A stretch of DNA of 64,000 nt from Candidatus Kuenenia stuttgartensis (lineage in GTDB: Bacteria > Planctomycetota > Planctomycetia > Planctomycetales > Planctomycetaceae). The stretch's first letter is position 1, and each line of letters starts with the position of its first letter. Of the stretch, positions 1 to 50,188 are shown in pieces. A program made the position numbers and the translations under genes. A model generated the notes under the pieces. It made no database searches. It saw only the letters and a list, made by a program, of their open reading frames with translations, and was not told the DNA's origin. The stretch lies in NCBI GenBank assembly GCA_945904015.1, contig CAMDPK010000005.1, forward strand, positions 1 through 64,000, in the 5' to 3' direction.

Positions 1-116
1 GTCATCGAGACCCACCGGAATGCCAACCAGCGATGGTGGGTCTCGATGACTCGACCCACCCTACGTTCAAGACCAATCCAGAGACCCTCACTTTCAATTC
101 TCGCGAGGATCGCGCC

Positions 117-5350: not shown

Positions 5351-5420
5351 TCGTTGGCGATTTTTCAACGACCAATGATCAACGACGAATTCTGAATCGC
5401 ACACTCCAAAGGTCACCAAC

Positions 5421-7091: not shown

Positions 7092-7163
7092 CACGACGCG
7101 CCAGCGAGTGGCCATTCGATGTCGATCACTCGCTGACAACAACCACTCGCTGGCGCGTCGTGC
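7091..7163. repeat. hairpin repeat (family F3: GCACGACGCGCCAGCGAGTGG ... CCACTCGCTGGCGCGTCGTGC)
   Basis: Perfect 21-nt inverted arms starting at the stop codon of the upstream gene. The same arm sequence recurs at 27785-27846. Confidence 0.6.
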
Positions 7164-7214
7164 TGGACTCGCAGGCTGACGCTGGCAGCGTCGGCCGCGA
7201 TTCGATCTGATGTA

Positions 7215-7249
7215 GGGGACTCGCGCGATGTCTCGCGAGTCCCCTTTTT
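7215..7249 (+). terminator. rho-independent terminator
   Basis: GGGGACTCGCG-cgatgtct-CGCGAGTCCCC followed by TTTTTGTT. It lies downstream of the SPFH pair and before the next gene. Confidence 0.7.
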
Positions 7250-7272
7250 GTTGGATCGTGGGAGCGTGAATC

Positions 7273-8940
7273 ATGCCTCGACTGTGCCGCTGGTTGCTCG
7301 CCGGAATTGTGCTCTGCTGTGTGTCGCCACTCATCGCACAAGACAATGTCGATCTTTACGGCGTTCGCGAAGAGCACACGATGATCCCGATGCGCGACGG
7401 AACAAAGCTCTCCGCGTATCTGTACTTCCCGGCGGGTGACGGCCCGTGGCCCGTGCTGTACGAGCAACGCTACGCCGACTTGAAGGGAGCGGGCACTCGG
7501 CAGGGAAACGCTCGGCTGGCGAAGGCGGGCTATGTCGTCTGTGCTGAGAACTATCGCGGAGCGGGCAAGTCGGAAGGGACATGGGTCGGCTACCGAGCAC
7601 TCGGCTGGGGTGAGTTGCAGGATGGCTACGACACCGTCGAATGGCTCTCCAAACAGAAATGGTCCACCGGAAAGATCGGGACGTTCGGCAGTTCGCAAGC
7701 AGGATTCGCTCAGAACTTTCTCGCAGTAACTCGGCCGCCGCATCTTGTCGCGCAGTACATGATCGACACGGGGCTGAGCCTGTACCAAGAGGGCTATCGC
7801 ATCGGTGGGACGACTCGGCCGGAGCGATTCAAAGGCATGGACGCCGTCTGTCGCGAGCCGGCTCACAACCTCGCGTTGCGGGTCGAGTGGTTCAAGCATC
7901 CAACCTTCGACGACTATTGGAAGCAGGAGGATTGCTCGCGGCACTTCGACAAGATGGATGTGCCGTGCTTCACGATCGGCAGTTGGTTTGACTTCATGAA
8001 CATTGGCTCGATCGAAAGTTATCGCGGCCGGCAGCATCGAGCCGGCCCGAACTCACGCGGCAAACAACAACTGCTGGTCGGCCCGTGGCTGCACGGTGGC
8101 TACCTCGGCAAGAACACGAACAGAGTCAGCGAGTTGACCTTTCCAGAGAACGCAAAGTTCGATGCCGAAAGCCATCTCGTCCGCTGGTTCGACTTCTGGC
8201 TCAAGGGCAAAGACAACCTCGTCGATCGTGATCCGGCGGTGCGGTACTACGTGACCGGGGCGACCGGCGAAGAACACGCGCCCGGCAACGTCTGGCGAGA
8301 AACGAACGATTGGCCGGTCTCATCGACGCCAACGTCCTATTTCTTGCGCGATGGCGGCAAGCTGACAACGTCATCGCCGACTGAAGCGGACGCGGTGGCG
8401 AGCTTCCTGGCTGATCCGCTCAAGCCTGCCAACATTCCGAACACGCGCGGGTTTCCGGGCGCGGCAGACGCTCGCAAGTTTGAAGAGCAAGCCGAAGTCC
8501 GCACCTTCACGACCGAGCCGCTGACCGAGCCGGTCGAATGGACCGGGATCGTCAACACAGAGTTGTTCGTCACGTCATCGGCGAAGGACACTGACTTCAT
8601 CGTCCGTGTCTGCGACGTGTACCCGGATGGCCGTTCGATCCTGTTGGTCGATTACATCCGCCGTGGCCGCTACCGCGACGGCTTCGAGCAGGAAGTCTTC
8701 TTCACACCCGGCAAGGTCGAAAAAGTCGCCTTCGAGGTCGGTTGGATCAGCCAAATCTTCGCGAAGGGACATCGCATCCGAGTCACCGTCGCCAGCACCG
8801 GTGCTCCGTTCTTCGAGCCGAATCCGAACACAGGCGAACCGCTCGCTCTCGAATTTCCGGCGAATGCAGTGGTGGCCAAGAACGTCGTGCAACTCAACCA
8901 GCAGCACGCCTCGCGAGTCATCGCACCGTTGCGGCCGTAG
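7273..8940 (+). CDS. CocE/NonD family hydrolase (S15 X-Pro dipeptidyl-peptidase-like alpha/beta hydrolase)
   Basis: 555 aa with an N-terminal signal peptide. Motifs LYFPAGDGPWPVL, GYVVCAENYRGAGKSEG and GTFGSSQAGF (nucleophile elbow) plus the C-terminal beta-sandwich are typical of the CocE/NonD family. Confidence 0.75.
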   Translation: MPRLCRWLLAGIVLCCVSPLIAQDNVDLYGVREEHTMIPMRDGTKLSAYLYFPAGDGPWPVLYEQRYADLKGAGTRQGNARLAKAGYVVCAENYRGAGKSEGTWVGYRALGWGELQDGYDTVEWLSKQKWSTGKIGTFGSSQAGFAQNFLAVTRPPHLVAQYMIDTGLSLYQEGYRIGGTTRPERFKGMDAVCREPAHNLALRVEWFKHPTFDDYWKQEDCSRHFDKMDVPCFTIGSWFDFMNIGSIESYRGRQHRAGPNSRGKQQLLVGPWLHGGYLGKNTNRVSELTFPENAKFDAESHLVRWFDFWLKGKDNLVDRDPAVRYYVTGATGEEHAPGNVWRETNDWPVSSTPTSYFLRDGGKLTTSSPTEADAVASFLADPLKPANIPNTRGFPGAADARKFEEQAEVRTFTTEPLTEPVEWTGIVNTELFVTSSAKDTDFIVRVCDVYPDGRSILLVDYIRRGRYRDGFEQEVFFTPGKVEKVAFEVGWISQIFAKGHRIRVTVASTGAPFFEPNPNTGEPLALEFPANAVVAKNVVQLNQQHASRVIAPLRP

Positions 8941-9137
8941 TCCGCGTGACTCGGTAGACTTCATTTGACGTTGCCGACTTTGCCGATTGCGAAAGACTGA
9001 CACGTATCGCCGAGATTGGCGATGACTCAGATCGTGTCAGCCGCCAAGCCCGGCAATGATCGGCATCGTGGCGCAGCGCGGAAATCCGCAATGGGCCGCA
9101 CAACGAATGCCGAGAGCCAAGAGAGTGGAAGCTCGAC

Positions 9138-10535
9138 TTGAGGACCGTCCTTGTGCCAAGTTCTGTTCGATCATTGATCGCTACTTGCCTGACGACTTGG
9201 TCGGCAATTTGCCTGCCGGTTCGTCTGCCCGCGGAAGAACCAGCCCCGCATCGAGTGATCGGCGTGGCTGGCTGCACCGCCGCAAGCTGTCACGGCGGCA
9301 AGTCGTTGGTCGGTGGCGAAGCGGCCGCCTGGCTAACTCGCGACGTCGCGCATCGGCGGGCGTTCGACGTGCTCTTCAACGAGTCGTCGGTTCGCATGGC
9401 GATGCAACTCGGACTCAAAGCCGCCCACACTGAGGCTCGCTGTTTGGCGTGTCATTCGACGCAAGAGGCTCATCCCGGCGGCGTGAAGGGTGAGCGATTC
9501 GCGGTCGAGTTCGGCGTCGGCTGCGAAAGCTGCCACGGCGTGGCTGGGGCTTGGGTCGCTCGACACACCGAGCGAACTTGGCGATCTCTGTCGATGTCGC
9601 AGAAAGCCGACCTCGGCTTCCACGACTTGCGACCAGTCAACGCTCGCGCCGAGAAGTGCGCCGAGTGCCATGTTGGTTCGCCACGAGCGACCGTCGATCA
9701 CGATCTCATTGCGGCGGGTCATCCGCGATTGGCGTTCGAGCTGTCGGCGTATCACGCGCTGTTGCCGAAACATTGGGACGCCGCGGCCGAGTTGCAGCGT
9801 GATCCCGCACAAGAACTTCGTCTGTGGGCGATCGGAAACGCAGTTTCGGCCAAGGCTCTGTCGGATGTCGCCGTTGCTCGCGCTGAGGCCGCGACCAAGA
9901 GCGGCACGAAGCATGTCACGCCCGACTTGGCTGAGTTCGATTGTCACGCTTGCCATCACGATCTCACCGAACCGACACGCGGCCGGCCGACGCTGCGCGA
10001 TTCGCTCGGCTCACCACGCTGGGGATCGTGGTCGGTTCCTCCTGCGAGAGTTGCGGCCCGTGAATCGCATCAACTGTTTGGTCAAGACGGCGCTGCCGCC
10101 GAGTCATCGCTGGGGCACCTGGCCAAATTGATGCAGCAGTCTCGGCTCGGAATCGCTCCGGCCGACCAACTTTCTCTGGCCGCTCGGCAAGCGAGTGCCG
10201 ATTTGGCGAACTGGTCACGCTCGTTGGAATACTCGACGACAGAGCCGGAACGAATGAATCAACTGCTGCATCGCCTGATCGCCACCGAATCCGAATCGGA
10301 ATGGCTGCCCACATGGGACGGACAAGTTCAACGCTATCTCGGCATCGTCGCCACCAGTCGCGCGCTGCGAGTCACGAGCGGCCACGAACCGTTTTCATTC
10401 GCCACGAATGCAGACGTGCTGGCCAAATTGCGCCGCCAACTCGCTTATCCGGTCGGCTATGCGACGCCAAGCAGTTTCGATCCGTCGGCGGTCAATCACG
10501 CCATTCAAGAGCTGCGCCAGAATCTGGCTCGCTGA
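9138..10535 (+). CDS. secreted multiheme cytochrome c (at least 4 CxxCH plus one CX4CH)
   Basis: Signal peptide, then motifs CLACH, CESCH, CAECH, CHACH and CTAASCH read from the translation. Confidence 0.7.
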   Translation: MRTVLVPSSVRSLIATCLTTWSAICLPVRLPAEEPAPHRVIGVAGCTAASCHGGKSLVGGEAAAWLTRDVAHRRAFDVLFNESSVRMAMQLGLKAAHTEARCLACHSTQEAHPGGVKGERFAVEFGVGCESCHGVAGAWVARHTERTWRSLSMSQKADLGFHDLRPVNARAEKCAECHVGSPRATVDHDLIAAGHPRLAFELSAYHALLPKHWDAAAELQRDPAQELRLWAIGNAVSAKALSDVAVARAEAATKSGTKHVTPDLAEFDCHACHHDLTEPTRGRPTLRDSLGSPRWGSWSVPPARVAARESHQLFGQDGAAAESSLGHLAKLMQQSRLGIAPADQLSLAARQASADLANWSRSLEYSTTEPERMNQLLHRLIATESESEWLPTWDGQVQRYLGIVATSRALRVTSGHEPFSFATNADVLAKLRRQLAYPVGYATPSSFDPSAVNHAIQELRQNLAR

Positions 10536-10556
10536 ACGCAGTCACTCGCCTGTCTT

Positions 10557-10602
10557 GATCGTTCTGCCCCATCGTTCTGCCAACTCGATTTGGCAGAACG
10601 AT
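10557..10602. repeat. repeat family F6 (CATCGTTCTGCC x2 ... TTGGCAGAACGATG); likely bidirectional terminator hairpin
   Basis: Inverted repeat between convergent stops at 10535 and 10616. The same motif set recurs at 27346-27425. Confidence 0.5.
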
Positions 10603-10615
10603 GAGACGGGAAAGC

Positions 10616-11905
10616 TCAGGCGGACTGGAGTTCCTGTACGAGACTGCGATCGTCGAGGATGTGCATCGGTCGCCTGTTGTGGTCGAGAATCGTGATCGCC
10701 GGATCGATGCCGAGGTGGCGGTACAAATTGGCGAGCACGTTGCTGGGCGTGTACGGCTGGCCGAGGGACTGGCCTCCGTGCGAGTCGGTTTCGCCAATGA
10801 CTTGGCCCATTCGGAATCCGCCGCCAGCGATCACGGCCGCACTAGCTTCTGGCCAGTGATCGCGGCCATCGCCGCGCGAGATGCGTGGTGCTCGGCCAAA
10901 CTCACCCCACAGGACGACGGCGACGTCTTTGTCCAAACCACGCTCGTGCAGATCGGTGACGAGTGCTTGGAAACCCAGATCGAGTTGTGGCAACTGCTCG
11001 CGCATCTCGCTGAAATTCTTCTCGTGAGTGTCCCAGTCGCCGACCTTCAGCGTCACGACCGAGACGCCCGCTTCAACCAGCCGCCGAGCCATCAGAAAGT
11101 TCTCACAGTACTTGCCGTACCGAGCATGCGTTTCCGGCAACTCGCGTGAGACATCGAACGCCTCGCGGACTTGTGGGGACGTGATCATCTCCAGCGCTCG
11201 TTGCGTGTAGGTGTCGATCACCGACAATCCGCTGGTCGCATCGACGTCCCGGCTGAGCGTGTCGAACTCTCGGAGGATTTGGCGGCGATCGCGCAGACGC
11301 TCCAGCGAAATCCCCTTCGCGAGACTCAGATTCGCGAGGCCGTCCGCTTTCGGGACGAATGGCCGATGCGCGGGGCCGAGATACGTCGGGCCTTCGTTGT
11401 CGTACAACCCCGGCGGCTTGTACATCAGGCTGACGTACGGCGGCATGCCACCAGAATGCGGACGTTGATGACTCACGACGGAACCAAGCACGGGACGCTT
11501 TCCTCGCTCGCCAAACCCGGTCAGGATGAAATGCGGCGTGTGGTCGCCGAGGTCGATCGACTTGATCCCGCGCACGATCGCGAGCTTGTCCAGCATCTGA
11601 GCGACCTTCGGCAGGTACTCGCAAATCTGCACGCCGGGCAGGTTCGTGGCGATCGGCTGGAACTCTCCGCGAATTTCGGCAGGAGCGTTCGGCTTCATGT
11701 CCAAGCTGTCGATGTGCGACATCGCGCCGCGCAGCCAAATCATGATGACCGATTTGGGACGTCCCGCGTCCGAACCTGCGATCGCCCGACTCCGCAACAC
11801 ATCCGCCAGCGTCAGGCCACCGAATGCCAAGCCGCCGACTCGTAACATTTCGCGGCGAGTGATTCCGTCACAGAGCTTTGTGCCTCGGCCATGAATACTC
11901 AGCAT
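10616..11905 (-). CDS. DUF1501 domain protein (sulfatase-like fold, Tat-type signal)
   Basis: N-terminus TRREMLRVGGLAFGGLTLADVL is a twin-arginine-like signal. Overall conservation pattern matches the DUF1501 family common in Planctomycetes. ATG chosen at 11905 (MLSIHG); the ORF runs to 11992. Confidence 0.7.
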   Translation of the reverse strand: MLSIHGRGTKLCDGITRREMLRVGGLAFGGLTLADVLRSRAIAGSDAGRPKSVIMIWLRGAMSHIDSLDMKPNAPAEIRGEFQPIATNLPGVQICEYLPKVAQMLDKLAIVRGIKSIDLGDHTPHFILTGFGERGKRPVLGSVVSHQRPHSGGMPPYVSLMYKPPGLYDNEGPTYLGPAHRPFVPKADGLANLSLAKGISLERLRDRRQILREFDTLSRDVDATSGLSVIDTYTQRALEMITSPQVREAFDVSRELPETHARYGKYCENFLMARRLVEAGVSVVTLKVGDWDTHEKNFSEMREQLPQLDLGFQALVTDLHERGLDKDVAVVLWGEFGRAPRISRGDGRDHWPEASAAVIAGGGFRMGQVIGETDSHGGQSLGQPYTPSNVLANLYRHLGIDPAITILDHNRRPMHILDDRSLVQELQSA

Positions 11906-12103
11906 CGCAAGTTCCTCGCTTTGAGAAGCTGTCCGAAAATCGACGGCAACGGGGTCGGGAAGATGATCTCGCAATCGGACCTGTCGGAGCAAGCCAAATC
12001 ACGAAATCGGGAGCCTCCCGCCGGACGGAATCGCTCGATATGGTGTTGATCGTCAAAGGCAAAACAGTTTGTGGAGAACGCAAACCTTTCGTTGGAGCAT
12101 TCC

Positions 12104-12652
12104 ATGCAAAGCAAAGCCACCACCGTCGAACAATACCTTGCGGAATTGCCCGAGGATCGTCGCGCGACCATTGCCGCCGTGCGGAAGGTGATCCTCAAGA
12201 ATCTCGACAAGGATTTCGAGGAAGGAATGCAGTACGGCGGCATCGGCTACTTCGTGCCGCACCGTGTATTCCCGGCCGGCTATCACTGCGATCCGACGAA
12301 GCCATTGTGTTTCGCGGGACTCGGGTCGCAGAAGAATTACATATCGCTGGGCCTGATGTGCGTCTACGGTTCGGAGAGCCATGCGAAATGGTTCCGAACC
12401 GCATGGGCAAAAACCGGGAAGAAGCTCGACATGGGCAAGTGTTGCATTCGATTCAAAAAGCTGGATGACGTGCCGCTCGAAGTCATCGGCGAGGCCATCC
12501 GTCGCGTGTCGGCCAAGAAGTACATTGAGATCTACGAGTCGTTGCTCAGGGACTCACGCAAGCGGTCGACCACGAAAACGGCCAAAGCTCGACGAACAGC
12601 AAAGCCCGCTGCCACGACAAAAGCTCCGCCTGCGAAGCGAGCCAAGAAATAG
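12104..12652 (+). CDS. DUF1801 (YdhG-like) domain protein
   Basis: MQSKATTVEQYLAELPEDRRATIAAVRKVILKNL resembles the DUF1801/YdhG family. Lys/Ala-rich basic C-terminal tail. Confidence 0.55.
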   Translation: MQSKATTVEQYLAELPEDRRATIAAVRKVILKNLDKDFEEGMQYGGIGYFVPHRVFPAGYHCDPTKPLCFAGLGSQKNYISLGLMCVYGSESHAKWFRTAWAKTGKKLDMGKCCIRFKKLDDVPLEVIGEAIRRVSAKKYIEIYESLLRDSRKRSTTKTAKARRTAKPAATTKAPPAKRAKK

Positions 12653-12674
12653 GACGGACAACCCTGTCCGTCCT
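12651..12674. terminator. stem-loop between convergent genes (AGGACGGACA-accc-TGTCCGTCCT)
   Basis: Perfect 10-bp stem immediately after the stop of the DUF1801 gene. A second weaker hairpin follows. No T-tract. Confidence 0.4.
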
Positions 12675-12730
12675 CAATGAGCAACGGACAGGACTGTCTG
12701 TCCCACCAACGAACCGCTGTCCGCGAACGA

Positions 12731-13018
12731 CTAGGCGTGCGTGCCTTGTTCGCTTTTGACCCGAGTCAACTCCGCTTGCAGCATCCGGTCTTTGAAGCCG
12801 GACGCGAAGACTCCGATCGCCACGACACCGTGAATTGCAACGCCCAACCCCCAACCCAGAAAGGGATACAAGCTCCAAGCCTTGTTGGGTGAAGATAGGT
12901 AATTGATCGCGAAGAGGACCAGCATGACGAGCACGAAGACCGAGGCGTGAATGTAAAACCCGATCTTGGAATTCGTCCGCGCGCGAGCCATGTCGAGAAG
13001 TTCTGTTTCTGTCATCAT
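12731..13018 (-). CDS. 2TM domain-containing small membrane protein
   Basis: 95 aa with two hydrophobic helices (FYIHASVFVLVMLVLFAINYL, LGWGLGVAIHGVVAIGVFASGF). The pattern resembles the 2TM family. Confidence 0.45.
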   Translation of the reverse strand: MMTETELLDMARARTNSKIGFYIHASVFVLVMLVLFAINYLSSPNKAWSLYPFLGWGLGVAIHGVVAIGVFASGFKDRMLQAELTRVKSEQGTHA

Positions 13019-13108
13019 TCCTCCTTGTGGAACCGTGTGAGTGCCTGAGTGGCTAAGTTTTCGATTTCAGTGGGACGGGCAACAGTACCCATCCTCCATT
13101 TCACTGCG

Positions 13109-16100
13109 TTACCTCCGGACCGTACTTGACGGCTTGGAAGTCCGATAGCCGGATCGGAAGAAGTCCGGTTGATTGTCGACCTTCCACGACTTGCCGTTGT
13201 GCAGGAAGAGCCGGCGTTGTTCTTCGAGATTGAACGGTCTGGCTCCGATGCGGCCGAAGACGCTGAGTTGATTGCCGGATTCGTCAACCGCTCGATCGCG
13301 GTCGACGCCCTCGGAAACGCACAGGGCGTGACCATCCTTCGGGAGCTTCTTCGTTGCGATCAGGGACGGAGCCGGACGTGTGGCGAAGCCCATGTTACCG
13401 GGGGTTTCGGGGCTGGTGAGTTGCACGACCCGCAGGCCGTTGTGGCCGTCGGCGAGGTACGCGAACTGGCTGTTGTAGGCGATGCCGAGCTTCACATCGT
13501 TCAGATCGTTGATGCAGCCGTCGGCGTTGAAGATTTGATCGACCTTCGGTTCGAGCGGGTTCTTGACATCGACGATGATCAGCCCATCGTGGCCGCCGGA
13601 AACGTAGGCGTATGTGCGAGCGACGTAGACGTTGCGAGCTTCGTGCAGCGGCAATGAGGCTCGCGGTTCGGGGGACGCGAGGTTGGTCACGTCGAGAATC
13701 TTCAAGCCCTCGCAGTCGGTGACGAAGGCATAACGAAACTGGACTTGGACGGCGTTCGGCTGGTTGAGGAACGGTGCTCCGATGACCGTCTCGATGCGCG
13801 GGTTCGTCGGATCGCGCAGATCGACGACAACCAGGCCGATGTCGGCACAAATGTAGGCGAAGGTGCCGACAATCGTGATGGCACGCGCGCCGCACAGGAT
13901 GCCATTCGGATTGAACGTGACGGCACGTTCCAAGAAGTTGTTGGTTGGATCGCCGTCGAGCAGCGTGCCGGCTCCGACAAGAATCAGTCCCTCTTGGCGG
14001 TCGGCGACGTAGAGGTAGGCGTAGATGCCGTGAACCGCTTGCTCTTCGTTTTCGGGGTCTTGTTTGCGAGTCGGATCGGGCGCGGTCGTGGCGGGTGCGG
14101 CGACGGCGGCGGCGTCTTTCGTCGGGACGTAGAATTTCTGACCGATCGGCGAGACCGGAGCAGTGACGATCCGCTCGGAGAATCCTTTGTGGTCGATGAA
14201 GGCGACATCGAACACACGCAAGCCAGCTTCACCGCAGGCCGCGTAGACGTACTCGCCGCGCAGTTGCAGGCTTTGGATGTTCGGCTTGCGAAGCGGATGC
14301 CGCACTCGGTCGCTGACGTCTCGGCCGGAGTGCTCGTGAGAGTGTTCGAGTTCGCCGCCGTGTTCGACGTGCTCGTGGTAGTTGTCGGGATACGCGAGTT
14401 TGTGCAGGCTGCTGCCGATGACAGTTTGCGGTTCGTCACGTTCGGTGACGACGACCGCTTCCATGCCGTGTTCTCCGGCACCGACCCAGCAATAGCGGCC
14501 CATCCAGTTCATGTAGTTGGTCCCCTGCATCAGCAACTGAGCCATGATGGCGTTGTTGTCCTCGGCAGCGGAGAGGTGGCAGTCGGCACATTGCTTGGTC
14601 CCGTCGCGTCCACGGACGGTGTGCGGCACGTTCGTCGAGAAGGCGACGCCGCTCATGCCGTCGGCGGAGATCGTCTGCTGCTGGACGTAAACCGATTCTC
14701 GGTTCTGGTTGTAGCTGCCGACATGGATCGCGCAAGCTGAGCGAGCCGGACTGACGCGATTGCCGGAAACGGTTCCGTCTTTGGCCAGCATGTAGATGTC
14801 GTCGCGCAGCGTCTGGAAGTTGTACGAGGTGTAGTTGCGGCTGACGTCTCCTTCGTTGTGCAGCGAAGGCATCTTCACGTTCGCTCGCTGGGGCAGGTGG
14901 CAGCCGTAACAGCTCGTGTTCCAGGACGAGTGGCAACTCGCGCAGCTCATCTTCTTGTTGTCGTGCGCGCATTTCGACGAGTCTTTCGGGCGTGTTCCCC
15001 AGGCGATCTCGTCCCCGTCGAAGCGGACGGTCTTGGCGAGATGGGACTTCGCGTTGTACCGCGGATGGCCGGGCGTGATGGTGTCGACAACCTGCGGGAC
15101 TTCCCACTGACGTGGCTGGTCGACGTCCTTCGTGACCATCGCGGTTTGGATGATCTTGTTGCCGACTCGGCGGAAGCGTGGCTTGCCAGACGGCGTGGAA
15201 AGCAGTTCGAGATTCGTGCCCCCTTCCGGTGCGGCGGGACCGGACGTGCGCAGCGAGGCGCGTCGATACGCATCGCCGTGGCAGTCTTCGCAGGCGATCT
15301 CGATGGCGGCGCGGACCTCGCCGTACAGCTTCGTGTTGCCGTGGTTGTCCTGTTTGAAATGACAATCGACGCAGTGCATCCCGCGTTCCAGGTGGATGTC
15401 CATGAAATGCACCGGCATGCCGTCCTTCTGCGGCCGGCAGTCAGGATGCAGCATCGCGTAGTTCAGCTTCGCAGTGGATTCGTCCTCGATGACTTTCTCT
15501 TTGTGATCGAGCAATCGTCCCTCACGGTCCTTTTTGAAGACGGCTCGAAAAACCCAACCGTGACCGTGGAAGTCGGCAAACTGCGTGTGCTTCAACTGCG
15601 GATTGAGGTCGGCCGTTTGATCGAGAAACGTCGGATCGGACCAGTTGCCGCGCAGCGAAGTTTCTTCCGGGTTGTTCATCGCGGCGCGGACGAACTCTTC
15701 GGCGGTCGGATTCTTTTGCTGCGGTGGGTACATGAACTCGCCGTCGGTCTCGTTGTCCCACCACATGAAGCCGAGGTAGCTGTTCATCACGGTCGTGCCG
15801 GGGTGCATGTGGCAGACGATGCACTGGCTACTCGGAATCGCGGTCGTGAACTCGTGCTTGATCGGATGGCCGGACTCGTTCTTTGGGATGGTCGGATCGG
15901 GATTGAGCGACAGTCCGCGATGGCCGGCTTCGGCGTGCGGTCCCGAATGGACGTGCGAACGATCGTTGGCATAGATGACGTGACACGCGGTGCAGCCGCT
16001 CGACCGATAATCGCCGGCGTGATCGTTCGTGCCGAGGAAATTCAGCGTCGGATCGAGCAGCCGCGTCTTCTGCAAGCCGATGAAGACGGGATCAGTGCGG

Positions 16101-17008
16101 TTCTCAGTGCCGAGTCCGCGATTGCTCAGCCGGCTGCGCGGGCGGCCCGGTTCTTCTTCACGTTCGGGGATGCCGATCTCGCCACGAAATCGCCCGCCCC
16201 GTTCAAAAATGCGGAGCACGTTGCCGGGCTGAGTCGTCTCAAAGCGCGGCAGCGGATCGAGAAACGGCACGACCCCTTTGTATTTCATCTCCCACTCAGT
16301 CGGAGCTGGCACGGTTTGCATTCGCTGCGGCGCGCCGTTCATCGAATAGCTCTCGCCGTAGCGCGATCGCTTCTTCGGCACCGCGCCGTTGTTGTACAGA
16401 GCCGCGCCCCACAGCATGCAGCCGTGAGTCATCATGCTCTTTTTCACTTCGAGCGTTTCTTTCGGATGACAGCCGGCCGTGCCGCACGACAAGTGCGCGA
16501 TCCGCAAGTCACCGGGATTCACGAAGCGGACGAAGTCCGGGCATTCGTGATTGAGCACCGTGTAGGACCGCGCGGGATTGGCTGATGTCGCCCACACGTC
16601 CGGGAATCTCGGCTGGACGTGAGCCTGCCACTTGTTGTTCGTGGTCGCATCCCCGCCGTGGCAGTCGACACAGCCGAGATGAGTTGTCCCTGGCTTGTGC
16701 ATGTCGCCGGTGTTCTTGTGGCATTGGATGCAGCCCCAACTCTTGACGTAAGCCTCGTCGGTCGTTTGCCGCATCAAACTGAACTCATCGAGTCGCAGCG
16801 GTTCGCGCGCTCCGCCGTGAACGCGCGGCTTGAGCGGCTCATCGGGCGCGGGCGGAATCAACTCTTGTTGCCGCATGCCTGCCGGCTGCACGGCAGAGTC
16901 TCGCCGCTTGAGCTTTTGAATTGCGGCCTTGAGCGTCGGCTCGCCGGCAAATGAGCTTCCGCCACCAAGCAGCAGCATCGCGAACAGAATGGAAAAGATA
17001 AGTCGCAT
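13109..17008 (-). CDS. secreted decaheme-type cytochrome c fused to a C-terminal LVIVD-repeat beta-propeller
   Basis: 1299 aa with a signal peptide. Nine CxxCH motifs (CIQCH, CVDCH, CTACH, CIVCH, CVDCH, CEDCH, CASCH, CYGCH, CADCH) plus CGTAGCH. The C-terminal ~400 aa carry repeated GL(R/I/V)(V/I)(F/V)DV..P..P blocks ([59 protein letters not shown]), which is the LVIVD repeat signature. Confidence 0.7.
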
Positions 17009-17032
17009 GGCAGAGACGTCCTTGTCTCAACA

Positions 17033-17145
17033 GTAGCCCTGTCGCTCCGCGACAGGAGAGCCGAACGTCTCTCGACGCCGGCGATGTTGTGTTGTTTGAG
17101 AGTCGCTGAATCCTCGGCTTTCCTGTCGCGGAGCGACAGGGCTAC
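17033..17145. repeat. REPIN (inverted REP doublet, family F1: GTAGCCCTGTCGCTCCGCGACAGG ... CCTGTCGCGGAGCGACAGGGCTAC)
   Basis: Two 24-nt REP hairpins in inverted orientation, ~65 nt apart. They fill the gap between the stop of the 17145-19385 gene and the start of the cytochrome gene. Two more copies flank the RAYT at 22846-22971 and 23725-23850. Confidence 0.8.
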
Positions 17146-19262
17146 TAATACGTGAGGTCGATTTGCAGGAAGCTGGCGAAGAATCCGTTTTGGCTACCGT
17201 TGTTGCGATTGAAGAGGTCGTTGAAGCCGCGATCCGGAATCAGTCCGGAGACGCCGCCGATGATGATCACGTTGTTGTTCAGGAACGGACGGTACTCGAC
17301 TCCGGTGCTCAGATCGGTGCCGATCTGCCTGCGGACTTTCTCTTGGAAGACGTACTGCTCCAGCACGTTGGTCTGATCGAACCACAGAAAATTGCAGTTG
17401 TTGACGAATCGCAGTTTCGGAGTGACGTCGAAGTCCACTCCGAAATTCAGCAGAAATAAACCGGGGTTCACGAAGTTTGATTGGCCTTGGAATTTGCTCG
17501 ACCGCAGGTCAGGCACGAGGCTCATGCGATTGACGAGGTTCACGCCGAACAGCCCGATGGTTTGCCGCTGCCAATAACTGAAGCCGCCGCCAGCGAAGTT
17601 GGGGTTGTCGAGAATCGTGTCAAAGCCGGTGGCTCTGTCGTCGTTGATGTCCTTGTCGCCGCTGGCCCAGAAGAATGAACTGCGGAAGCGCACCCAATCG
17701 CGATCGTACGACAACTCCAGCGCGGCCATCTGAGCGTCAATGTCCTGTGCCTTGCCCGCCAGCGGGTTGAGCGTGTCGTGACCGAGCACCCAATAAAACG
17801 CATGGCTGACATTGACCCGATTGATGTGCCCGTCCCCCGCCCAGCCCAGGTAATACGCATCGACCTTGTGCTCTTGAAATACACCGACCGGATCGGGGCG
17901 GACGAGAAAATCGTTTTTGTCAAACTCGGTGCTCGGCCCGTCGTGGTTCCAGTGAAAACTGGTCTGAGCCGTGTAGCCGGGAAACAGAAAATCCTGGCGG
18001 TAATAGTTGGCAATCAGCGTGTTCTGACGCCGGTCGTCGAACGTGTTGAGCAAGCTGTTGGTCTGCTTCTCGGTCTGATCGAAAAAGACGACGTTGTATT
18101 GGTCGCGATTGGCGTTGTTGTTGCCGAACAGTCGCACCCCGCGGTTGATGTCGCTGAAGATGAAGCCGCGAAAGTCGCTGACGAACTGCTGCGAACCGGC
18201 TCGCACCGAAACGAAATCGTAGTACGGGCTGGTGTCGGCCAGCTTGGTTTCGAAGAACCACTCTTCGAGTGCCCCGTCCGTTCGAAACCGCGTCTTGCCG
18301 TGATTGACGTTTGGGTTGACGATGCCCAACTCCCGCACGTCGAGGTAATTCAAGTTGAGGACCGGCGTCACTTTGATGCGCCAGTCCGCCGGCTTGAACG
18401 CTCCGTCGCCGTGAACGAGATCGAACGACAGGGAGAGGTTTTGCGAGACGAAGAATTGATTCGGGTTGCCGAAGAATTCCGTTTGCCCCGCTCCGCCAGT
18501 GCTCTCGAAAGGAGTCGTCGGCGTCGGCACTTGCCGAGCTTCGAGGATCGTCAAGTTCGTCGCGGTGAGGTTCAGAAACGTGTGCTGACCGAAGATCGGA
18601 AAATCACCCTTCAGCACGTTTTGGTTGTACGGATCGAGAATATTGCCCTGCATGTACGGGTAATCGTCTTCCGGCGGATAGCCCTTGCCGTAGCGATCCC
18701 ATTCGGGGAATCCGGATCGCCAGCGATCCTCCATCGGGACGAAATGGCTGCTCTCTTGGCCCTCGCTGGGGAGCACTCCGCTGCGGCCAGTGAAACCGAG
18801 CGGTGCATCCATCGGATAGGCGAAGAGCGTGCCCGGTTCGAGCGGCAATTCCGGCAGCAACAACGGATCGGACTCTGGAAACGTCGGCTCGAACGGCCGT
18901 CGTAGAACCGGTGGGCGAACGTCGTCACCAGCGGTGGGCAACGGTAGTTCTTTGAAAACGTCCTCTTCCTCGTCGGCAGTCACTTCCAATTCTTCCTCGG
19001 TCGCGATGGCCCACTCGACGAACGGGGGCTCCTCATCGGACTCGACGCCCGTGAGTAAATCCGCTCTTGGACTGAGGGGCGGAGTCGCCGCAAAAACCGC
19101 CTGCCAAGTGAGCAGCGTGAAGCAGGCAAAGGCCGCCAACATCAACATCCAGCGACGCGGGACGCTGAGTTCGGCGCGCACACGAACGGCTCGACGTCGC
19201 GCGTCGATTCGTAGCAACGGCAATCCGGACGTCTCCGAATGTCGCGGCACTGTGCGCCTCAT
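17145..19262 (-). CDS. putative outer-membrane beta-barrel protein (large, ~26-strand size class)
   Basis: ORF 17145-19385. Candidate signal peptide MLMLAAFACFTLLTWQAVFA (start 19148) or upstream MRRT (19262). Acidic N-terminal region. Alternating amphipathic beta-strand-like pattern with Asn/Asp/Gly turns. Terminal ...FLQIDLTY ends in an aromatic residue as in OMP barrels. This is an inference with no family match. Confidence 0.4.
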   Translation of the reverse strand: MRRTVPRHSETSGLPLLRIDARRRAVRVRAELSVPRRWMLMLAAFACFTLLTWQAVFAATPPLSPRADLLTGVESDEEPPFVEWAIATEEELEVTADEEEDVFKELPLPTAGDDVRPPVLRRPFEPTFPESDPLLLPELPLEPGTLFAYPMDAPLGFTGRSGVLPSEGQESSHFVPMEDRWRSGFPEWDRYGKGYPPEDDYPYMQGNILDPYNQNVLKGDFPIFGQHTFLNLTATNLTILEARQVPTPTTPFESTGGAGQTEFFGNPNQFFVSQNLSLSFDLVHGDGAFKPADWRIKVTPVLNLNYLDVRELGIVNPNVNHGKTRFRTDGALEEWFFETKLADTSPYYDFVSVRAGSQQFVSDFRGFIFSDINRGVRLFGNNNANRDQYNVVFFDQTEKQTNSLLNTFDDRRQNTLIANYYRQDFLFPGYTAQTSFHWNHDGPSTEFDKNDFLVRPDPVGVFQEHKVDAYYLGWAGDGHINRVNVSHAFYWVLGHDTLNPLAGKAQDIDAQMAALELSYDRDWVRFRSSFFWASGDKDINDDRATGFDTILDNPNFAGGGFSYWQRQTIGLFGVNLVNRMSLVPDLRSSKFQGQSNFVNPGLFLLNFGVDFDVTPKLRFVNNCNFLWFDQTNVLEQYVFQEKVRRQIGTDLSTGVEYRPFLNNNVIIIGGVSGLIPDRGFNDLFNRNNGSQNGFFASFLQIDLTY

Positions 19263-19548
19263 CCTTGAAGACACGTCGCCGCGCCAGCTTCGCGCGACCC
19301 GCATCCCTGCGTGAAAACACTCCGGCCGCGCTCTACCGATGAGCCACGGCTTTTCCGCTTTCATCGGTTCTGCCGACGGAAGCAAATCAATCCGTTGAGC
19401 ACGGTTCTAACGCCCGATGAAGGAAAGGCCCGATCTCGTGCGGATCGTGGAATGCACAAAAGTCGGGTGGCTTCGGGGGTCCGGGGCGAATAGTTTGTGC
19501 GAGCAACTGCCAATCCGAGAAATCTTCGGGCCACAGGGATTTTCGCTC

Positions 19549-21894
19549 ATGTCTCGGTTGTTCTCGTTCCTGTGCCGCACCCCGCGACCAGCACGTCGCA
19601 GAGCCTCGCGTGCGCTCGGCGCGGGTCTCCCGACCCCGCCGGTGGAATGTCTGGAGTCCCGGCAGCTTCTGGCCGCCACCCCCATCACCGCTGACGAAGT
19701 CACGCTGCTGCTGAATCGCGCGGCCGTCGCAACCAATTCGGAAGACGCCATCATCGCCGTCGTGGATCGCGGCGGACGAATCCTGGGAGTGCGTGTCGAA
19801 CAGTCGGTGATCACCGAGGACAAAAACGTCAACGGCATGTTGGATCCGGGCGAGGACAAGAACGCCAACGGCATCATTGACGGCATTGACGCCATGTCCA
19901 ACGGCGGTAACGGGAATGGACTGATCGATCCCGGTAGTGCCGAAGAAGAAACGCTCGTGTTTGCCATCGACGGAGCCGTTGCGAAAGCTCGCACCGCCGC
20001 GTTCTTCGCCAACGGCACGTCGGATTCTCGAATCGATCCCGAAACTGGAGTGGCCCCGGCCATCGGAACAGCGACGCCAACCGTCGGTCCACTGACATCG
20101 CGCACCGTGCGATTCATCAGTCAAACCACGATCACGCAGCGCGAGATGCAGTCGAACCCCAACGCCGACCCAATTCTGGAATCGGACGTCCGCGGCCCAG
20201 GCTATGTGGCTCCGGTCGGTATCGGCGGACACTTCCCGCCAGCGATTGCACACACGCCGCAGGTCGATCTGTTCGGCATCGAGCACACCAATCGCGACAG
20301 CATCGTGCATCCCGGAGCGAACTCAATCCGCGAAACCACGGACCCGACTCTGACCGTCCTCGGTGGAGTCGGCGACGGGAAAGACCTCCTGCTGCCGGGT
20401 CGCTTCAACACCACCTACGAGCCAGGCAAAGACATCGAGGCTCCCGAAAGTTACGGCTTCACTTCGCGGCGCATGACCGAAGCTCAGTCGCGCGGCATCG
20501 CGACTCTGCCCGGCGGAATTCCGCTGTACCGTGACTTTGATGTCGTCGGTGGCATCGGCGTCTTCTTCCCGGGCACGGTTGATGCGGACGGAGCCGGTCC
20601 GCAACAACTCGGCGACGCGACGTTCGAGCAAGGCTTCGTCCCCGGCATCAAACAAACCGAAGCTCAACGCACGAACGCTCCGAAGGTGCTGGAGGCGGAA
20701 TACATCGCGTTCGCGGCAGCCGGCGGCGCGACCTTCGGTGGACTCGCCGCGAAGGACAAAATCGGAGCGATCACCGGTTTGGACGGAATCCCCCTCGACC
20801 CTTCGCCGTTCCTGTTGCCGTTCGGACGGATTGATCTCGTTGGCATCACGCTGCAAATCATCGGCCCGACCGCGGGAGTCTCCGGCGTTCGCACGGTCGA
20901 AGCGCTCGGTAAAAAACTTGGAGTCGGCCACAACACTGGTGCCAACCAAGTCGTCGATCCTGGTGCGGACTTTGATCCGACGACGCTGGGCGACAACCTC
21001 ATCGTGCGAGATGGCGTCGATGTCCCCGAAGGTTGGCTCGTCATGCCACACGCGGGCAGCTCGCTGACCGAGGACAACGTGCGGGACATCATCGAGCAAG
21101 GCATTGCCACCGCCAACGCCACGCGAGCCGCAATTCGCCTCAAAGTCACGAACACAATAAAAGGGACGACGGTCTCCGGTGCGCGAACTCGCATGGTGTT
21201 TGCTGTCACCGATACGGATGGCAGCATTCTGGGCCTGTACCGCATGCACGACGCGACGGTCTTTTCGATCGATGTCGCCGTCGCGAAAGCTCGCAACACG
21301 GCCTACTACGCCGACGCCGCGCAACTGGCACTCAACCCCGGCGATAAGGTGGATGACGACAACGTTGGCGGAGCCGACGTGCCGCTCGGCACTGCGTTCA
21401 CCAACCGCACGTTTCGCTTCTTGGCCGAACCGCGTTATCCCCAAGGGGTCGATGGCAGCAAGCAAGGCGACTTCTCGATCCTCAACGACCCCGGCTTCAA
21501 GACCGATTTGCTGAAATCGAAAAATCCGACCATCGCCGCCGGAGCGGTCGAGAACCTCGCTGACCCCTTCTCTGCGTCGGTGTTCTCTTCGTCGACCACA
21601 TCGGTGTTCGGTTACGACTCGTTCAACCCAGGAAGCAATTTCCGACAGGTGGCAAACATCGCCAATCAAAACGGCGTCATTTTCTTCCCTGGCAGCGCAC
21701 CGGTCTACAACGCCCTCGGCACGCTGCTTGTCGGTGGCTTTGGCGTCAGCGGTGACGGCGTCGATCAAGACGACGTCGTGACCTTCTTCGGAGTGAACGG
21801 CTTCCGTCCGCCCGCAGCCATTCAGGCCGATCAGTTCCTCGTGCGTGGTACACGGTTGCCGTACCAAAAGTTCAACCGCAATCCGTTCGCATAG
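19549..21894 (+). CDS. secreted protein with two DUF336 (GlcG/HbpS-like, putative heme-binding) domains
   Basis: ORF 19417-21894. Likely start MSRLFSFLCRTPRPARRRASRALG (19549). Two segments, AIIAVVDRGGRILGVRVEQS...VFAIDGAVAKARTAAFFA and MVFAVTDTDGSILGLYRMHDATVFSIDVAVAKARNTAYYA, match the DUF336 pattern. Confidence 0.5.
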   Translation: MSRLFSFLCRTPRPARRRASRALGAGLPTPPVECLESRQLLAATPITADEVTLLLNRAAVATNSEDAIIAVVDRGGRILGVRVEQSVITEDKNVNGMLDPGEDKNANGIIDGIDAMSNGGNGNGLIDPGSAEEETLVFAIDGAVAKARTAAFFANGTSDSRIDPETGVAPAIGTATPTVGPLTSRTVRFISQTTITQREMQSNPNADPILESDVRGPGYVAPVGIGGHFPPAIAHTPQVDLFGIEHTNRDSIVHPGANSIRETTDPTLTVLGGVGDGKDLLLPGRFNTTYEPGKDIEAPESYGFTSRRMTEAQSRGIATLPGGIPLYRDFDVVGGIGVFFPGTVDADGAGPQQLGDATFEQGFVPGIKQTEAQRTNAPKVLEAEYIAFAAAGGATFGGLAAKDKIGAITGLDGIPLDPSPFLLPFGRIDLVGITLQIIGPTAGVSGVRTVEALGKKLGVGHNTGANQVVDPGADFDPTTLGDNLIVRDGVDVPEGWLVMPHAGSSLTEDNVRDIIEQGIATANATRAAIRLKVTNTIKGTTVSGARTRMVFAVTDTDGSILGLYRMHDATVFSIDVAVAKARNTAYYADAAQLALNPGDKVDDDNVGGADVPLGTAFTNRTFRFLAEPRYPQGVDGSKQGDFSILNDPGFKTDLLKSKNPTIAAGAVENLADPFSASVFSSSTTSVFGYDSFNPGSNFRQVANIANQNGVIFFPGSAPVYNALGTLLVGGFGVSGDGVDQDDVVTFFGVNGFRPPAAIQADQFLVRGTRLPYQKFNRNPFA

Positions 21895-21947: not shown

Positions 21948-22358
21948 GTGCCCATCCTCCAAAACAAAGTCGCCATGATGGCCCACTCCAACTCTCTCGC
22001 TCGACTCATCGGGCTGATCTTGTTTGGCGTGCTCGTTTCAAGTTGTGCCGTGTTGCGAGCCGGCAATCACCACTGCGACACCTGCGAGCGCTATGACCGC
22101 CACGCCTGCGCCGGCTGGCCACAGTGCATCTCGCGCTGGGCACGCCCGTCCTACGGCTGCCACGAGTCAGGCTGCTACGTCGGCGGCGGCGCACCGTTTC
22201 ATGGCGACGGTCGCTGCGCCCACGAAGGGACATGGGGCTGGGACTACCACGGCCGCCTCTTCACCAAACGCATCTGGCTCGGCTGGCACCACGGCCGCCG
22301 CGATCAAGGCGGCACCGGAGCGTACAAGACCGACGGCCCGCACCTGCTGCATCACTGA
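21948..22358 (+). CDS. small Cys/His-rich putative lipoprotein
   Basis: Lipobox-like LVSSC after a hydrophobic segment. 8 Cys and 9 His in ~100 mature residues (CDTCERYDRHAC, CHESGC, HGDGRCAHEG, ends HLLHH). Metal binding is an inference. Confidence 0.35.
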   Translation: MPILQNKVAMMAHSNSLARLIGLILFGVLVSSCAVLRAGNHHCDTCERYDRHACAGWPQCISRWARPSYGCHESGCYVGGGAPFHGDGRCAHEGTWGWDYHGRLFTKRIWLGWHHGRRDQGGTGAYKTDGPHLLHH

Positions 22359-22845: not shown

Positions 22846-22971
22846 GTAGCCCTGTCGCTCCGCGACAGGAAAGCCGAACTGTCGGTTGACGTCATTCGCG
22901 CGACCGACCCGTAATAGCCAATCAGCGTCAATCGCGCGCTCGGCTATCCAGTCGCTGAGCGACAGGGCTAC
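22846..22971. repeat. REPIN (family F1) flanking RAYT, preceded by 18-bp tandem duplication
   Basis: GTAGCCCTGTCGCTCCGCGACAGG ... CCAGTCGCTGAGCGACAGGGCTAC. Immediately upstream, GTCGCCCTTCCGCCCAAT is repeated twice in tandem (22810-22845). Confidence 0.8.
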
Positions 22972-23690
22972 AACGGCTTCGAGTAATGCAAATACTCATT
23001 TGGCTTCAGCCACGCGTTCGGGCCGTTGTTCGCGATGTAGCGGCGAAAGGCGTCGAAGTGGTCGGGCGAGCGGATCAGGTGATCGAAGCCGTCTTGCTGC
23101 CAGAAGTGGCCGGAGGCTCCGAGTTGTCGGTTGATTTCGCGAGCGGTGAAGTGCTTCCACGATTCGCATTGGACCAGCATCCCGTCTTCATCGACGAAAG
23201 CCGCGAGCAAATGGACGTGGTTGGGCATGACCACGACATCGGTCAATTCATATCGCTCGCCGTCAAACTTGAGCAAGCTGTCGCCGACGATCTTCGCCAC
23301 CGACGGATCGCGCAGCACGCACGCGCCGTGGCAGGTACGGGTGGCACAGGTTCGCAGAACCTGTGTGCCGAAGGCATTGGAAACTCGGAGTCAGCGCGGA
23401 TTCCATGACCAGCCCTCAATCGCGATTGAGCACGAACTCCGAATTTCCAATGCTTCGCACACAGCTTGAAGCAAACTGTGCCACCCGCGCGAGTCGATGC
23501 CGTGTCGGCGAAGCCACTCCTCTCGATCCGCGTGCCAGCGATTGAGCACCGATTTGGGGATCGAGTCGATCGTTCGCCAAGTGATGAAGCAGACGGTTCC
23601 CGCCTGCGACCAATGCGGCAACTTGCGTTCGACGATGGAGAACTCGGCGTTCGGATCAAACACCTGCAACGGCCAAAGCGAAGAAGCCAT
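22968..23690 (-). mobile_element. REP-associated tyrosine transposase (RAYT/TnpA_REP, IS200-like HUH-Y1), disrupted
   Basis: N-terminal part RKLPHWSQAGTVCFITWRTIDSIP... (ORF 23391-23786) and C-terminal part ...LRDPSVAKIVGDSLLKFDGERYELTDVVVMPNHVHLLAAF...FWQQDGFDHL...FRRYIANN (ORF 22968-23318) are in the same frame. An in-frame TGA at 23391-23393 separates them. The HUH motif and C-terminal Tyr are present. REPINs flank both sides. Confidence 0.75.
23340..23487. repeat. hairpin-flanked ~148-nt insertion inside the RAYT reading frame (REPIN/MITE-like)
   Basis: Left end GGTGGCACAGGTTCGCAGAACCTGTGTGCC and right end GCACACAGCTTGAAGCAAACTGTGCCACC are inverted copies, and each is itself a hairpin. 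Internal perfect palindrome CTCAATCGCGATTGAG. The segment adds ~48 codons, including the stop, at the position where the RAYT ...WLRRH / GHGAC... regions should be closer. Confidence 0.5.
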
Positions 23691-23724: not shown

Positions 23725-23850
23725 GTAGCCCTGTCGCTCCGCGACAGGAAAGCCGAACGGTCGTTTGACGTCGTCCGCGCGATCAACCCACAACAGCCAA
23801 TCCACGTCGTTCGCGCGCTCGGCTAACCTGTCGCGGAGCGACAGGGCTAC
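23725..23850. repeat. REPIN (family F1) flanking RAYT
   Basis: GTAGCCCTGTCGCTCCGCGACAGG ... CCTGTCGCGGAGCGACAGGGCTAC. It overlaps the spurious N-terminal extension of the RAYT ORF. Confidence 0.8.
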
Positions 23851-42146: not shown

Positions 42147-42162
42147 CTCCGCCCGGCTCTTC

Positions 42163-42185
42163 AGTCGCGGTGCGACAGGGCTACT
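42163..42185. repeat. single REP unit of family F1 (CGCGGTGCGACAGGGCTAC)
   Basis: Half of the F1 doublet. It overlaps the stop of giant gene C, between convergent genes. Confidence 0.5.
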
Positions 42186-45192: not shown

Positions 45193-45234
45193 GGGAGACA
45201 CCTCTGAAATTAAAAACCCCACCCCACTTGCCGG

Positions 45235-49743: not shown

Positions 49744-50188
49744 GATGGCGACGCCTTTCACAGAGTCGTCAGAGGCCCGTGACGGCGATTGGCTTGGGGC
49801 AACGTGGCGGACAAGCATATTTAGACCACACGAAATCAGGCGGGATCGACCAATACCAGGACGCGATTTGCATCCTAAGTCGCTCCCGTTGAGCGTGCAA
49901 CGAGTGGCTCGGTCGATCCCACGGCTGGCGAATTTGTGAATGTGGCTCGTAGCCACGCTCGCCAAGAGCGTGGGGAACGTGTCCCAAGCGTGGTCGTCCC
50001 ACGCTCTTGGCGAGCGTGGCTACAACTGCAAACCCAACGCAAACCAAACTTCTAGCCAGCCGTGGGTCGATCCCCTCGGCGATACTCGCGAAGCATCTGC
50101 CGCTGTATGCTGTTCGGCGATCTTGAATCGAATCCTCTGGCCGAAAGGCCGCTCCTGATTGGCGACTCCAAAATTGAGAGGACGACCG

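Follow-up and report, generated by a model that had tools for sequence, protein, structure and literature searches.

A conserved 18-strand barrel and decahaem cytochrome-propeller gene pair as a putative envelope redox module of Planctomycetes

The 64,000-nucleotide stretch of DNA analysed here (positions 1 to 64,000 of contig CAMDPK010000005.1, assembly GCA_945904015.1, labelled Candidatus Kuenenia stuttgartensis; guanine-plus-cytosine fraction ~0.60), hereafter the window, harbors two neighbouring reverse-strand genes, one for a large protein with outer-membrane features and one for a 1299-aa multihaem c-type cytochrome. The locus raises the question of whether such a pair is an electron conduit of the Mtr type or a system of another kind. 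The initial annotation, made from the letters of the sequence, had described it as a candidate porin-cytochrome module and had likened it to the Mtr systems. The analysis points to a conserved putative envelope redox module and not to an MtrAB-type wire in a sheath, since the barrel is not large enough, the cytochrome is a bulky protein, and peptidoglycan-binding domains in some homologues point to the periplasm. The barrel and the cytochrome would together make up a redox unit of two proteins at the outer membrane, and this unit would be the outer end of a chain that carries electrons across the envelope; this reading is given a probability of about 0.5, and its single details much less. In line with the earlier impression of novelty, no published account of the module was found in the literature searched, coverage of which was incomplete, and an earlier description is possible.

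Conservation in the cytochrome was judged on an alignment of 53 homologues. The protein starts with a Sec-type signal peptide that has no lipobox cysteine. The nine CxxCH motifs (residues 93, 113, 339, 396, 546, 573, 689, 700, and 807) and the single Cx4CH motif (CGTAGCH, residue 175) that had been counted earlier were found to be present, and all ten are invariant in the alignment. The Cx4CH motif can be regarded as a real haem site because a 41%-identical orthologue has the canonical CGQCH at this position. The motifs are spread across ~720 residues of a haem domain of ~800 aa, i.e., ~80 residues per haem. The AlphaFold2 model, which covers residues 70–1265, reproduced the haem domain poorly (predicted local distance difference test score, pLDDT, mostly <50, as expected without cofactors), and a PDB fold search hence gives nothing reliable for it; a PDB sequence search with the cytochrome returned no match at E up to 1. 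No match to the Mtr families was obtained for the cytochrome in Pfam or NCBIfam. The sole named family matched by the haem domain was the NCBIfam equivalog ExtM (NF040943), with 78.9 bits against a cutoff of 800 and partial coverage of the profile, and the same profile gave 48–93 bits in five of the seven distant relatives scanned and no match in the other two. Homologues of the cytochrome number more than 8000, and the best 120 are 63–100% identical and all contain PF08309. One sequence (P0306) considered as a relative devoid of the propeller was rejected, as it looks frameshifted.

The fusion of the haem domain to an LVIVD propeller was borne out by Pfam (PF08309, 73.4 bits against a cutoff of 20.2) and by AlphaFold2, which modelled the C-terminal ~400 residues confidently as a propeller (pLDDT ~90). 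Foldseek searches with the propeller retrieved generic propellers only, with template-modelling scores (TM-scores) of ~0.4–0.5 on the target; the top match was cytochrome cd1 nitrite reductase (E 9e-7, TM-score ~0.43 on target), a likeness at the level of the fold only. In the 53 sequences, the propeller revealed neither an invariant His/Cys cluster nor any other obvious site for a cofactor. The linker between the haem domain and the propeller is rich in histidine, with H893 invariant and H880, H891, and E892 nearly invariant, and could be a metal-binding stretch.

The gene upstream of the cytochrome lies in an open reading frame (ORF) of 746 codons (17145–19385, reverse strand), the translation start of which is probably at 19262 (705 aa) or 19148 (667 aa) rather than at the end of the ORF; residue numbers used here follow the 667-aa form. 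An AlphaFold2 model, for which a 59-sequence alignment was the input, showed a signal helix, a disordered stretch of ~170 residues, and, from residue 190 to 666, 18 antiparallel strands, with pLDDT mostly 80–90 in the barrel region. The acidic N-terminal region, which is disordered, and the aromatic C-terminus (Tyr) noted earlier were both recovered, and the protein was predicted neither as soluble nor as a non-barrel protein. The only detail of its description that proved wrong was the comparison in size with the 26-strand MtrB: the barrel has 18 strands, and the extra length is an N-terminal extension. The turns on one side of the barrel comprise 2–9 residues and the loops on the opposite side up to 68 residues, which, in the model, matches the normal orientation of outer-membrane barrels, the two termini being periplasmic. 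As modelled, the ORF encodes a genuine outer-membrane barrel, an 18-strand channel of the AlgE/OprD class. OprD and AlgE have loops that constrict the pore, and by comparison with these the conserved loop L7 probably enters the pore or folds across it. The segment preceding the barrel is near-invariant within Planctomycetes and is predicted to be disordered when modelled alone (pLDDT <50).

At the level of sequence, the barrel has no match in Pfam, NCBIfam, or PDB (PDB profile search, E up to 1). Marginal matches to Alginate_exp (PF13372) were observed in 3 of the 59 homologues (best E 0.016) and not in the window protein. A motif scan of all ORFs of at least 100 aa detected no CxxCH in the barrel ORF, so that it is not a fusion of the Cyc2 type. 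Homologues of the barrel number in the thousands, the best 120 being 60–100% identical. The best 120 homologues of the barrel and the best 120 of the cytochrome are nearly all annotated as "hypothetical", with one barrel labelled as a HEAT repeat-containing protein.

A survey with one genome per species detected the barrel in at least 600 species genomes, including isolates of Roseiconus, Rubripirellula, Rhodopirellula, and Aporhodopirellula. Gene neighbourhoods in Planctomycetes were counted by tblastn over 86 loci, the denominators being the loci with enough sequence. The cytochrome gene was directly downstream of the barrel gene on the same strand in 56 of the 69 informative loci, and a gene for a DUF336 protein was placed divergently upstream of the barrel in 64/75; the genome loci are the best 80 of at least 600 matches, which skews these counts to close relatives. 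The flanking genes vary from locus to locus, and thus the conserved unit is the module and not the surrounding region. One of the loci, contig CAMDRI010000131.1 (L008), is 90–96% identical to the window module, a closeness that makes the label Candidatus Kuenenia stuttgartiensis of its metagenome-assembled genome suspect. The other loci retrieved belong to non-anammox Planctomycetes.

The spacer of 136 bp between the barrel and cytochrome genes is filled by a REPIN, an inverted pair of repetitive extragenic palindromic (REP) sequences, as had been stated. The REP motif GTAGCCCTGTCGCTCCGCGACAGG is present in seven copies in the window against 0 expected by chance. Inverted pairs of the motif were also found at 22846–22971 and 23725–23850, with a further REP site at 42161–42184, and the ORF between these two pairs (22968–23318, reverse strand) codes for a short IS200-like Y1 transposase (PF01797, E 9.7e-6). 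The segment 22846–23850 looks like a REP-associated tyrosine transposase with its own REPINs, one copy of which landed between the barrel and the cytochrome. The sole Rfam match in the window, a sub-threshold microRNA precursor, corresponds to the REPIN hairpin and was treated as spurious; no family reached its gathering score in the window, and there was no clue to a riboswitch.

A search beyond Planctomycetes, seeded with the 41%-identical cytochrome orthologue, reached the module in Acidobacteria, candidate division KSB1, Wallbacteria, and unassigned genomes. The barrel and the cytochrome genes adjoin on one strand in all six of these loci, which brings the overall distribution to at least four phylum-level groups, and the protein immediately before the cytochrome is in each case 528–793 aa long and 26–49% identical to the window barrel. 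The barrels across phyla share the motif DRWR...DPYxQNxLKGDxP, the loop ASGD...GFD...NFVNPG, and the aromatic C-terminus. The gap between the two genes is 0–97 nt in five of the six loci, which indicates operons, and 361 nt in the remaining one (L090). No REPIN-like insert is present between the two genes in these loci. The co-occurrence in relatives on which the proposal of a module depended was hence found in both samples (56/69 and 6/6), and the adjacent, co-conserved genes correspond to a porin-cytochrome module in the generic sense.

Further genes for redox proteins accompany the pair outside Planctomycetes. A cyclic-nucleotide (cNMP)-binding protein with two 4Fe-4S clusters was detected in 5/6 loci, and in 4/6 it is adjoined in every case by the gene for a ~285-aa membrane protein with four invariant His residues in hydrophobic helices; this protein, for which Pfam gave no match, is a candidate dihaem b-type transmembrane electron carrier. 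Flavoproteins with FHA domains and NAD(P)-binding folds occur in four of the six loci, and membrane-anchored decahaem and c554-like cytochromes in several. In L089, a single 1296-aa fusion (4278–8168) just upstream of the pair unites three FHA domains, nine CxxCH motifs, a 4Fe-4S domain, and a Pyr_redox_2 flavoprotein domain, with a topology that would place redox centres on either side of the inner membrane. Within Planctomycetes, homologues of the cNMP-binding Fe-S protein were found beside the module in L001, L039, L053, and L078. Genes for Ser/Thr protein kinases lie within a few kb of the module in L087, L088, L090, and L005. Together with the FHA and cNMP-binding domains, the kinases suggest control of the system by phospho-signalling and cyclic nucleotides.

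The domain content of L092 bears on the location of the two proteins. In this locus (7599–14622), an AMIN domain stands at the N-terminus of the barrel and an OmpA peptidoglycan-binding domain at the C-terminus of the cytochrome; hence, these parts of the barrel and the cytochrome are periplasmic in that lineage. Directly after the pair comes a gene for a class I monohaem cytochrome c of 113 aa.

Three further genes of the window recur as partners of the pair. The divergently transcribed protein with two DUF336 domains, whose ORF runs from 19417 to 21894 on the forward strand, was confirmed as such, with an HbpS-like match (PF03928, 50 bits against a cutoff of 25, in three stretches) and support for an internal duplication; it contains an N-terminal motif of the Planctomycete extracellular type and a dockerin-like insert rich in Asp, Asn, and Gly. 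Some members of the family (HbpS and the PduO C-domain) bind or degrade haem (PMC4923194). Its description as haem-associated is unsafe, because the closest solved sequence relative is EfgA and the ligands of the family are diverse: the closest solved structures to its C-terminal domain are the formaldehyde sensor EfgA (6bws, E 2.2e-7) and the GlcG-like 2a2l. The window protein resembles HbpS, GlcG, the PduO C-domain, and EfgA in its PF03928 C-terminal domain and differs from them in having two tandem domains with large insertions in each, and proteins of this type, which in KSB1 and Wallbacteria bear a lipoprotein signal, are exported and linked to a barrel of the outer membrane. In KSB1 and Wallbacteria, the two-domain DUF336 lipoprotein is encoded directly upstream of the pair and co-directionally.

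The gene next to it codes for the small exported protein that had been described as a Cys/His-rich lipoprotein. Homologues were found by tblastn in 41 loci and in each of them follow the DUF336 gene immediately, so that a small conserved protein and recurrent partner does exist. Alignment of 40 distinct sequences, including that of the window, showed that Cys and His are not conserved and that the richness is lineage-specific, and a role as a Cys/His-rich metal-binding lipoprotein was rejected on this ground. The core, AG.P...VGGG...EGTWG.DY.G...QGG.G.Y..DGP, is rich in Gly, Trp, and Tyr, and the protein has no Pfam match. The pentahaem cytochrome reported at a distance of ~3 kb was located 2.6 kb from the module and carries four CxxCH motifs and CTAASCH; c554-like homologues lie at most 8 kb away in 13 of the 86 Planctomycete loci and adjoin the pair in L087, L088, L090, and L091. 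Its product is a candidate periplasmic electron carrier. The coordinates of all features are collected in Table 1.

Table 1. Features of the module and its partners. Positions are those of the window, except for the last four rows, where they are those of the locus named.
Feature	Position	Strand	Basis
c554-like pentahaem cytochrome, loosely linked	9138..10535	+	Pfam Cytochrome_C554, E 3.2e-12
Decahaem c-type cytochrome with C-terminal LVIVD propeller, 1299 aa	13109..17008	-	motif scan, Pfam, alignment, AlphaFold2
LVIVD beta-propeller, ~residues 840-1235, ~27 strands, ~seven blades	13304..14491	-	AlphaFold2, Pfam
His-rich linker between haem domain and propeller, residues 874-905	~14294-14389	-	alignment
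Haem domain, ~residues 85-830, 9 CxxCH + CGTAGCH	14519..16756	-	motif positions, invariance
REPIN (inverted REP pair) in barrel-cytochrome spacer	17033..17145	.	
Outer-membrane protein: signal peptide, variable acidic stretch, pre-barrel segment, 18-strand barrel	17145..19262	-	alignment, AlphaFold2
18-strand beta-barrel domain, residues 190-667, C-terminal residue Y	17148..18581	-	
Loop L7, 68 residues, strands 13-14, ASGD...GFD...GG...NFVNPG, conserved	17460..17663	-	alignment, AlphaFold2
Conserved periplasmic pre-barrel segment, residues 116-189, motif DRWR...DPYNQNxLKGDxPI	18582..18803	-	alignment
Tandem DUF336 (GlcG/HbpS/EfgA-like) protein, divergently transcribed	19549..21894	+	Pfam, PDB sequence search
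Small exported protein downstream of DUF336 gene	21948..22358	+	tblastn, alignment
Four-His membrane protein, L087	17256-18113		
Four-His membrane protein, L088	16093-16947		
Four-His membrane protein, L090	270-1121		
Four-His membrane protein, L091	18153-18917		

In the working proposed for the outer-membrane redox unit, the bulky cytochrome would stay in the periplasm and may dock under the barrel, most likely with its propeller against the pre-barrel segment. It would be fed electrons by small multihaem carriers, e.g., the c554-like protein, and would exchange them with a small substrate or carrier travelling through the specific channel, with no haem wire through the barrel. Loop L7 would probably shape a specific site for this small substrate or carrier, and the tandem-DUF336 protein and the small protein may serve as ligand- or cofactor-holding partners at the outer membrane. 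Judged from the accessory genes in the other phyla, the net direction of the electrons is probably outward, from NAD(P)H to an acceptor, and the gene set of those phyla could take electrons from NAD(P)H in the cytoplasm as far as the outer membrane. A wider and tentative proposal, held with clearly less confidence than the two-protein unit itself, joins these parts into an electron-export chain common to several phyla, in which an FHA-regulated NAD(P)H flavoprotein would pass electrons to the cNMP-binding Fe-S protein and then, through the four-His protein and the membrane-anchored and c554-like cytochromes, to the decahaem-propeller protein, the 18-strand barrel, and the exported tandem-DUF336 protein. 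Its outer-membrane step would be of a non-Mtr kind, consisting of a small specific channel and a DUF336 protein that carries a cofactor or ligand, and the chain would be near-universal in the mostly aerobic Planctomycetia.

Several observations weigh against this picture. The docking mode is weakened by the low pLDDT (<50) of both the pre-barrel segment and most of the haem domain. The cytochrome gene does not adjoin the barrel gene in 13 of the 69 loci, mostly of Gemmataceae, where unrelated genes stand in its place; the DUF336 gene is retained in most of these loci. The 64-kb window contains no homologue of the Fe-S, four-His, or FHA-flavoprotein genes, so that in this organism the donors upstream of the pair would be encoded outside it. 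The monohaem cytochrome c of L092 fits an inward flow to an oxidase equally well. The Planctomycete counts are, moreover, skewed to close relatives.

The reading closest to known biology is that of a canonical MtrAB-type conduit, with a chain of ten haems inside the barrel lumen and electrons delivered directly to extracellular minerals or partners. MtrB has 26 strands (26–28 in the MtrB/PioB type) and sheathes the slim MtrA of ~330 aa, and the MtrA/PioA type is compact, ~300–350 aa, with ten closely spaced CxxCH motifs. The window pair shares with MtrCAB, PioAB, and MtoAB the adjacency and co-conservation of an outer-membrane barrel gene and a gene for a ten-haem c-type cytochrome, the haem count being that of MtrA, and a likely envelope electron path; faint Pfam matches to MtrC/MtrF domain II/IV were also seen in some distant homologues. 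The resemblance goes little further, as the barrel has neither 26–28 strands nor membership of MtrB_PioB, and the ten motifs of the cytochrome occupy ~720 residues of a 1299-aa protein, so that its extended haem domain and 400-aa propeller stand against the slim MtrA. The size of the barrel and the OmpA-domain fusions, which speak for a periplasmic protein, argue against a cytochrome that crosses the outer membrane within the barrel; no Mtr family was matched in Pfam or NCBIfam, and no extracellular lipoprotein cytochrome of the surface type is part of the conserved set. The likeness to Mtr-type systems drawn in the initial annotation was accordingly given up, and a conduit of this kind is considered quite unlikely.

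A substrate channel with a periplasmic multihaem enzyme would turn the flow around: the propeller would be catalytic or substrate-binding, and the haems would send electrons inward to the respiratory chain, as in cd1 nitrite reductase or quinohaemoprotein dehydrogenases. A single periplasmic polypeptide in which a beta-propeller comes after a haem c domain does recall cd1 nitrite reductase, the top Foldseek match, and other enzymes of this build; the barrel belongs to the class of substrate-specific channels, a haem density as low as this is usual in enzymes, the degree of conservation is very high (~65% identity between Planctomycete families), and the L092 pair is directly followed by the monohaem cytochrome c. 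The comparison weakens in its particulars, since the window protein has ten haems versus one and ~seven LVIVD blades versus eight d1-binding blades, its propeller has no evident cofactor ligands, the structural matches are generic, and no nir or d1 biosynthesis genes were seen among the annotated ORFs of the window. There is also no candidate substrate, and the NAD(P)H-flavoprotein and Fe-S accessory genes suggest outward flow, which leaves an enzyme of this sort rather unlikely. Reductive acquisition of iron or tetrapyrroles, with the DUF336 protein capturing haem or iron, the barrel importing it, and the cytochrome reducing Fe(III) with electrons from NAD(P)H, accounts for the haem-binding or haem-degrading members of DUF336 (PMC4923194), for the survival of the DUF336-barrel pairing where the cytochrome has moved off, for the resemblance of an NAD(P)H-flavoprotein feeding a four-His membrane protein to the logic of ferric reductases, and for the spread of the module in aerobic heterotrophs. 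It is nevertheless judged very unlikely, as ten haems would be far more than a one-electron assimilatory step calls for, no gene of the iron-transport or Fur type is conserved beside the module, and the DUF336 ligands are diverse with EfgA as the nearest solved relative. The barrel does have the 18-strand fold of AlgE (PF13372). It differs from AlgE, OprD, and Occ proteins in sequence (7–14% identity, no convincing Pfam membership), in a ~190-residue extra N-terminal segment, and in a gene context that is redox and not one of alginate synthesis or nutrient uptake. That it might be an AlgE-like exporter of anionic polymers, with the neighbouring cytochrome devoid of functional meaning, is scarcely credible given an adjacency kept across phyla with operon-like spacing and the lack of any polysaccharide synthesis or export genes recurring in the loci examined.

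Comparison with other outer-membrane redox systems leads to a similar placement. The Geobacter ext clusters (such as the ExtHIJKL conduit) bring together multihaem cytochromes, partners that are not cytochromes, and a porin-like barrel of smaller size, and ExtM is the 12-haem cytochrome GSU2935 (PMC5877670). The window module resembles these clusters in this non-canonical mix. It differs from them in that ExtM has no propeller and that the rhodanese, selenoprotein, and bc-type genes are absent from the module, and the ExtM score lies far below the equivalog cutoff. The porin-cytochrome cluster reported from Verrucomicrobia, with a barrel of at least 20 strands and an 8-haem cytochrome, is a different system. 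The module falls outside MtrAB, Cyc2, ExtM, and, by sequence, Alginate_exp and within LVIVD, DUF336, and the generic class of barrel-cytochrome pairs.

The remainder of the window contains three large paralogues of 1013–1336 aa (37017–40880 and 50159–54169 on the forward strand and 42181–45222 on the reverse strand), which combine BamB/PQQ-like propeller repeats with a methyltransferase domain and one of which also has a malectin domain. A shorter PQQ_2 protein at the start of the window (33–1364, forward strand) is the fourth of this group. A megablast search against plasmids gave no match to the region.

The four-gene module is retained at ~60–70% identity across Planctomycete families, a degree of constraint typical of core machinery. 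Planctomycetia, which are regarded as ordinary aerobic heterotrophs, abound in soils, freshwater, and the sea. If the outer-membrane redox unit is real, it would widen the known electron-transfer designs of the Gram-negative envelope beyond Mtr, Omb/Oma, and Cyc2 and would offer a genetically testable candidate for the redox interactions of Planctomycetes, Acidobacteria, and KSB1 with metals, humics, or oxidants. The gene set shared across phyla provides a parts list for experiments and for marker models of a module that metagenome surveys currently miss. Should the electron-export reading also be true, its near-universal presence in Planctomycetia would imply a core role for electron exchange at the outer membrane in these bacteria.

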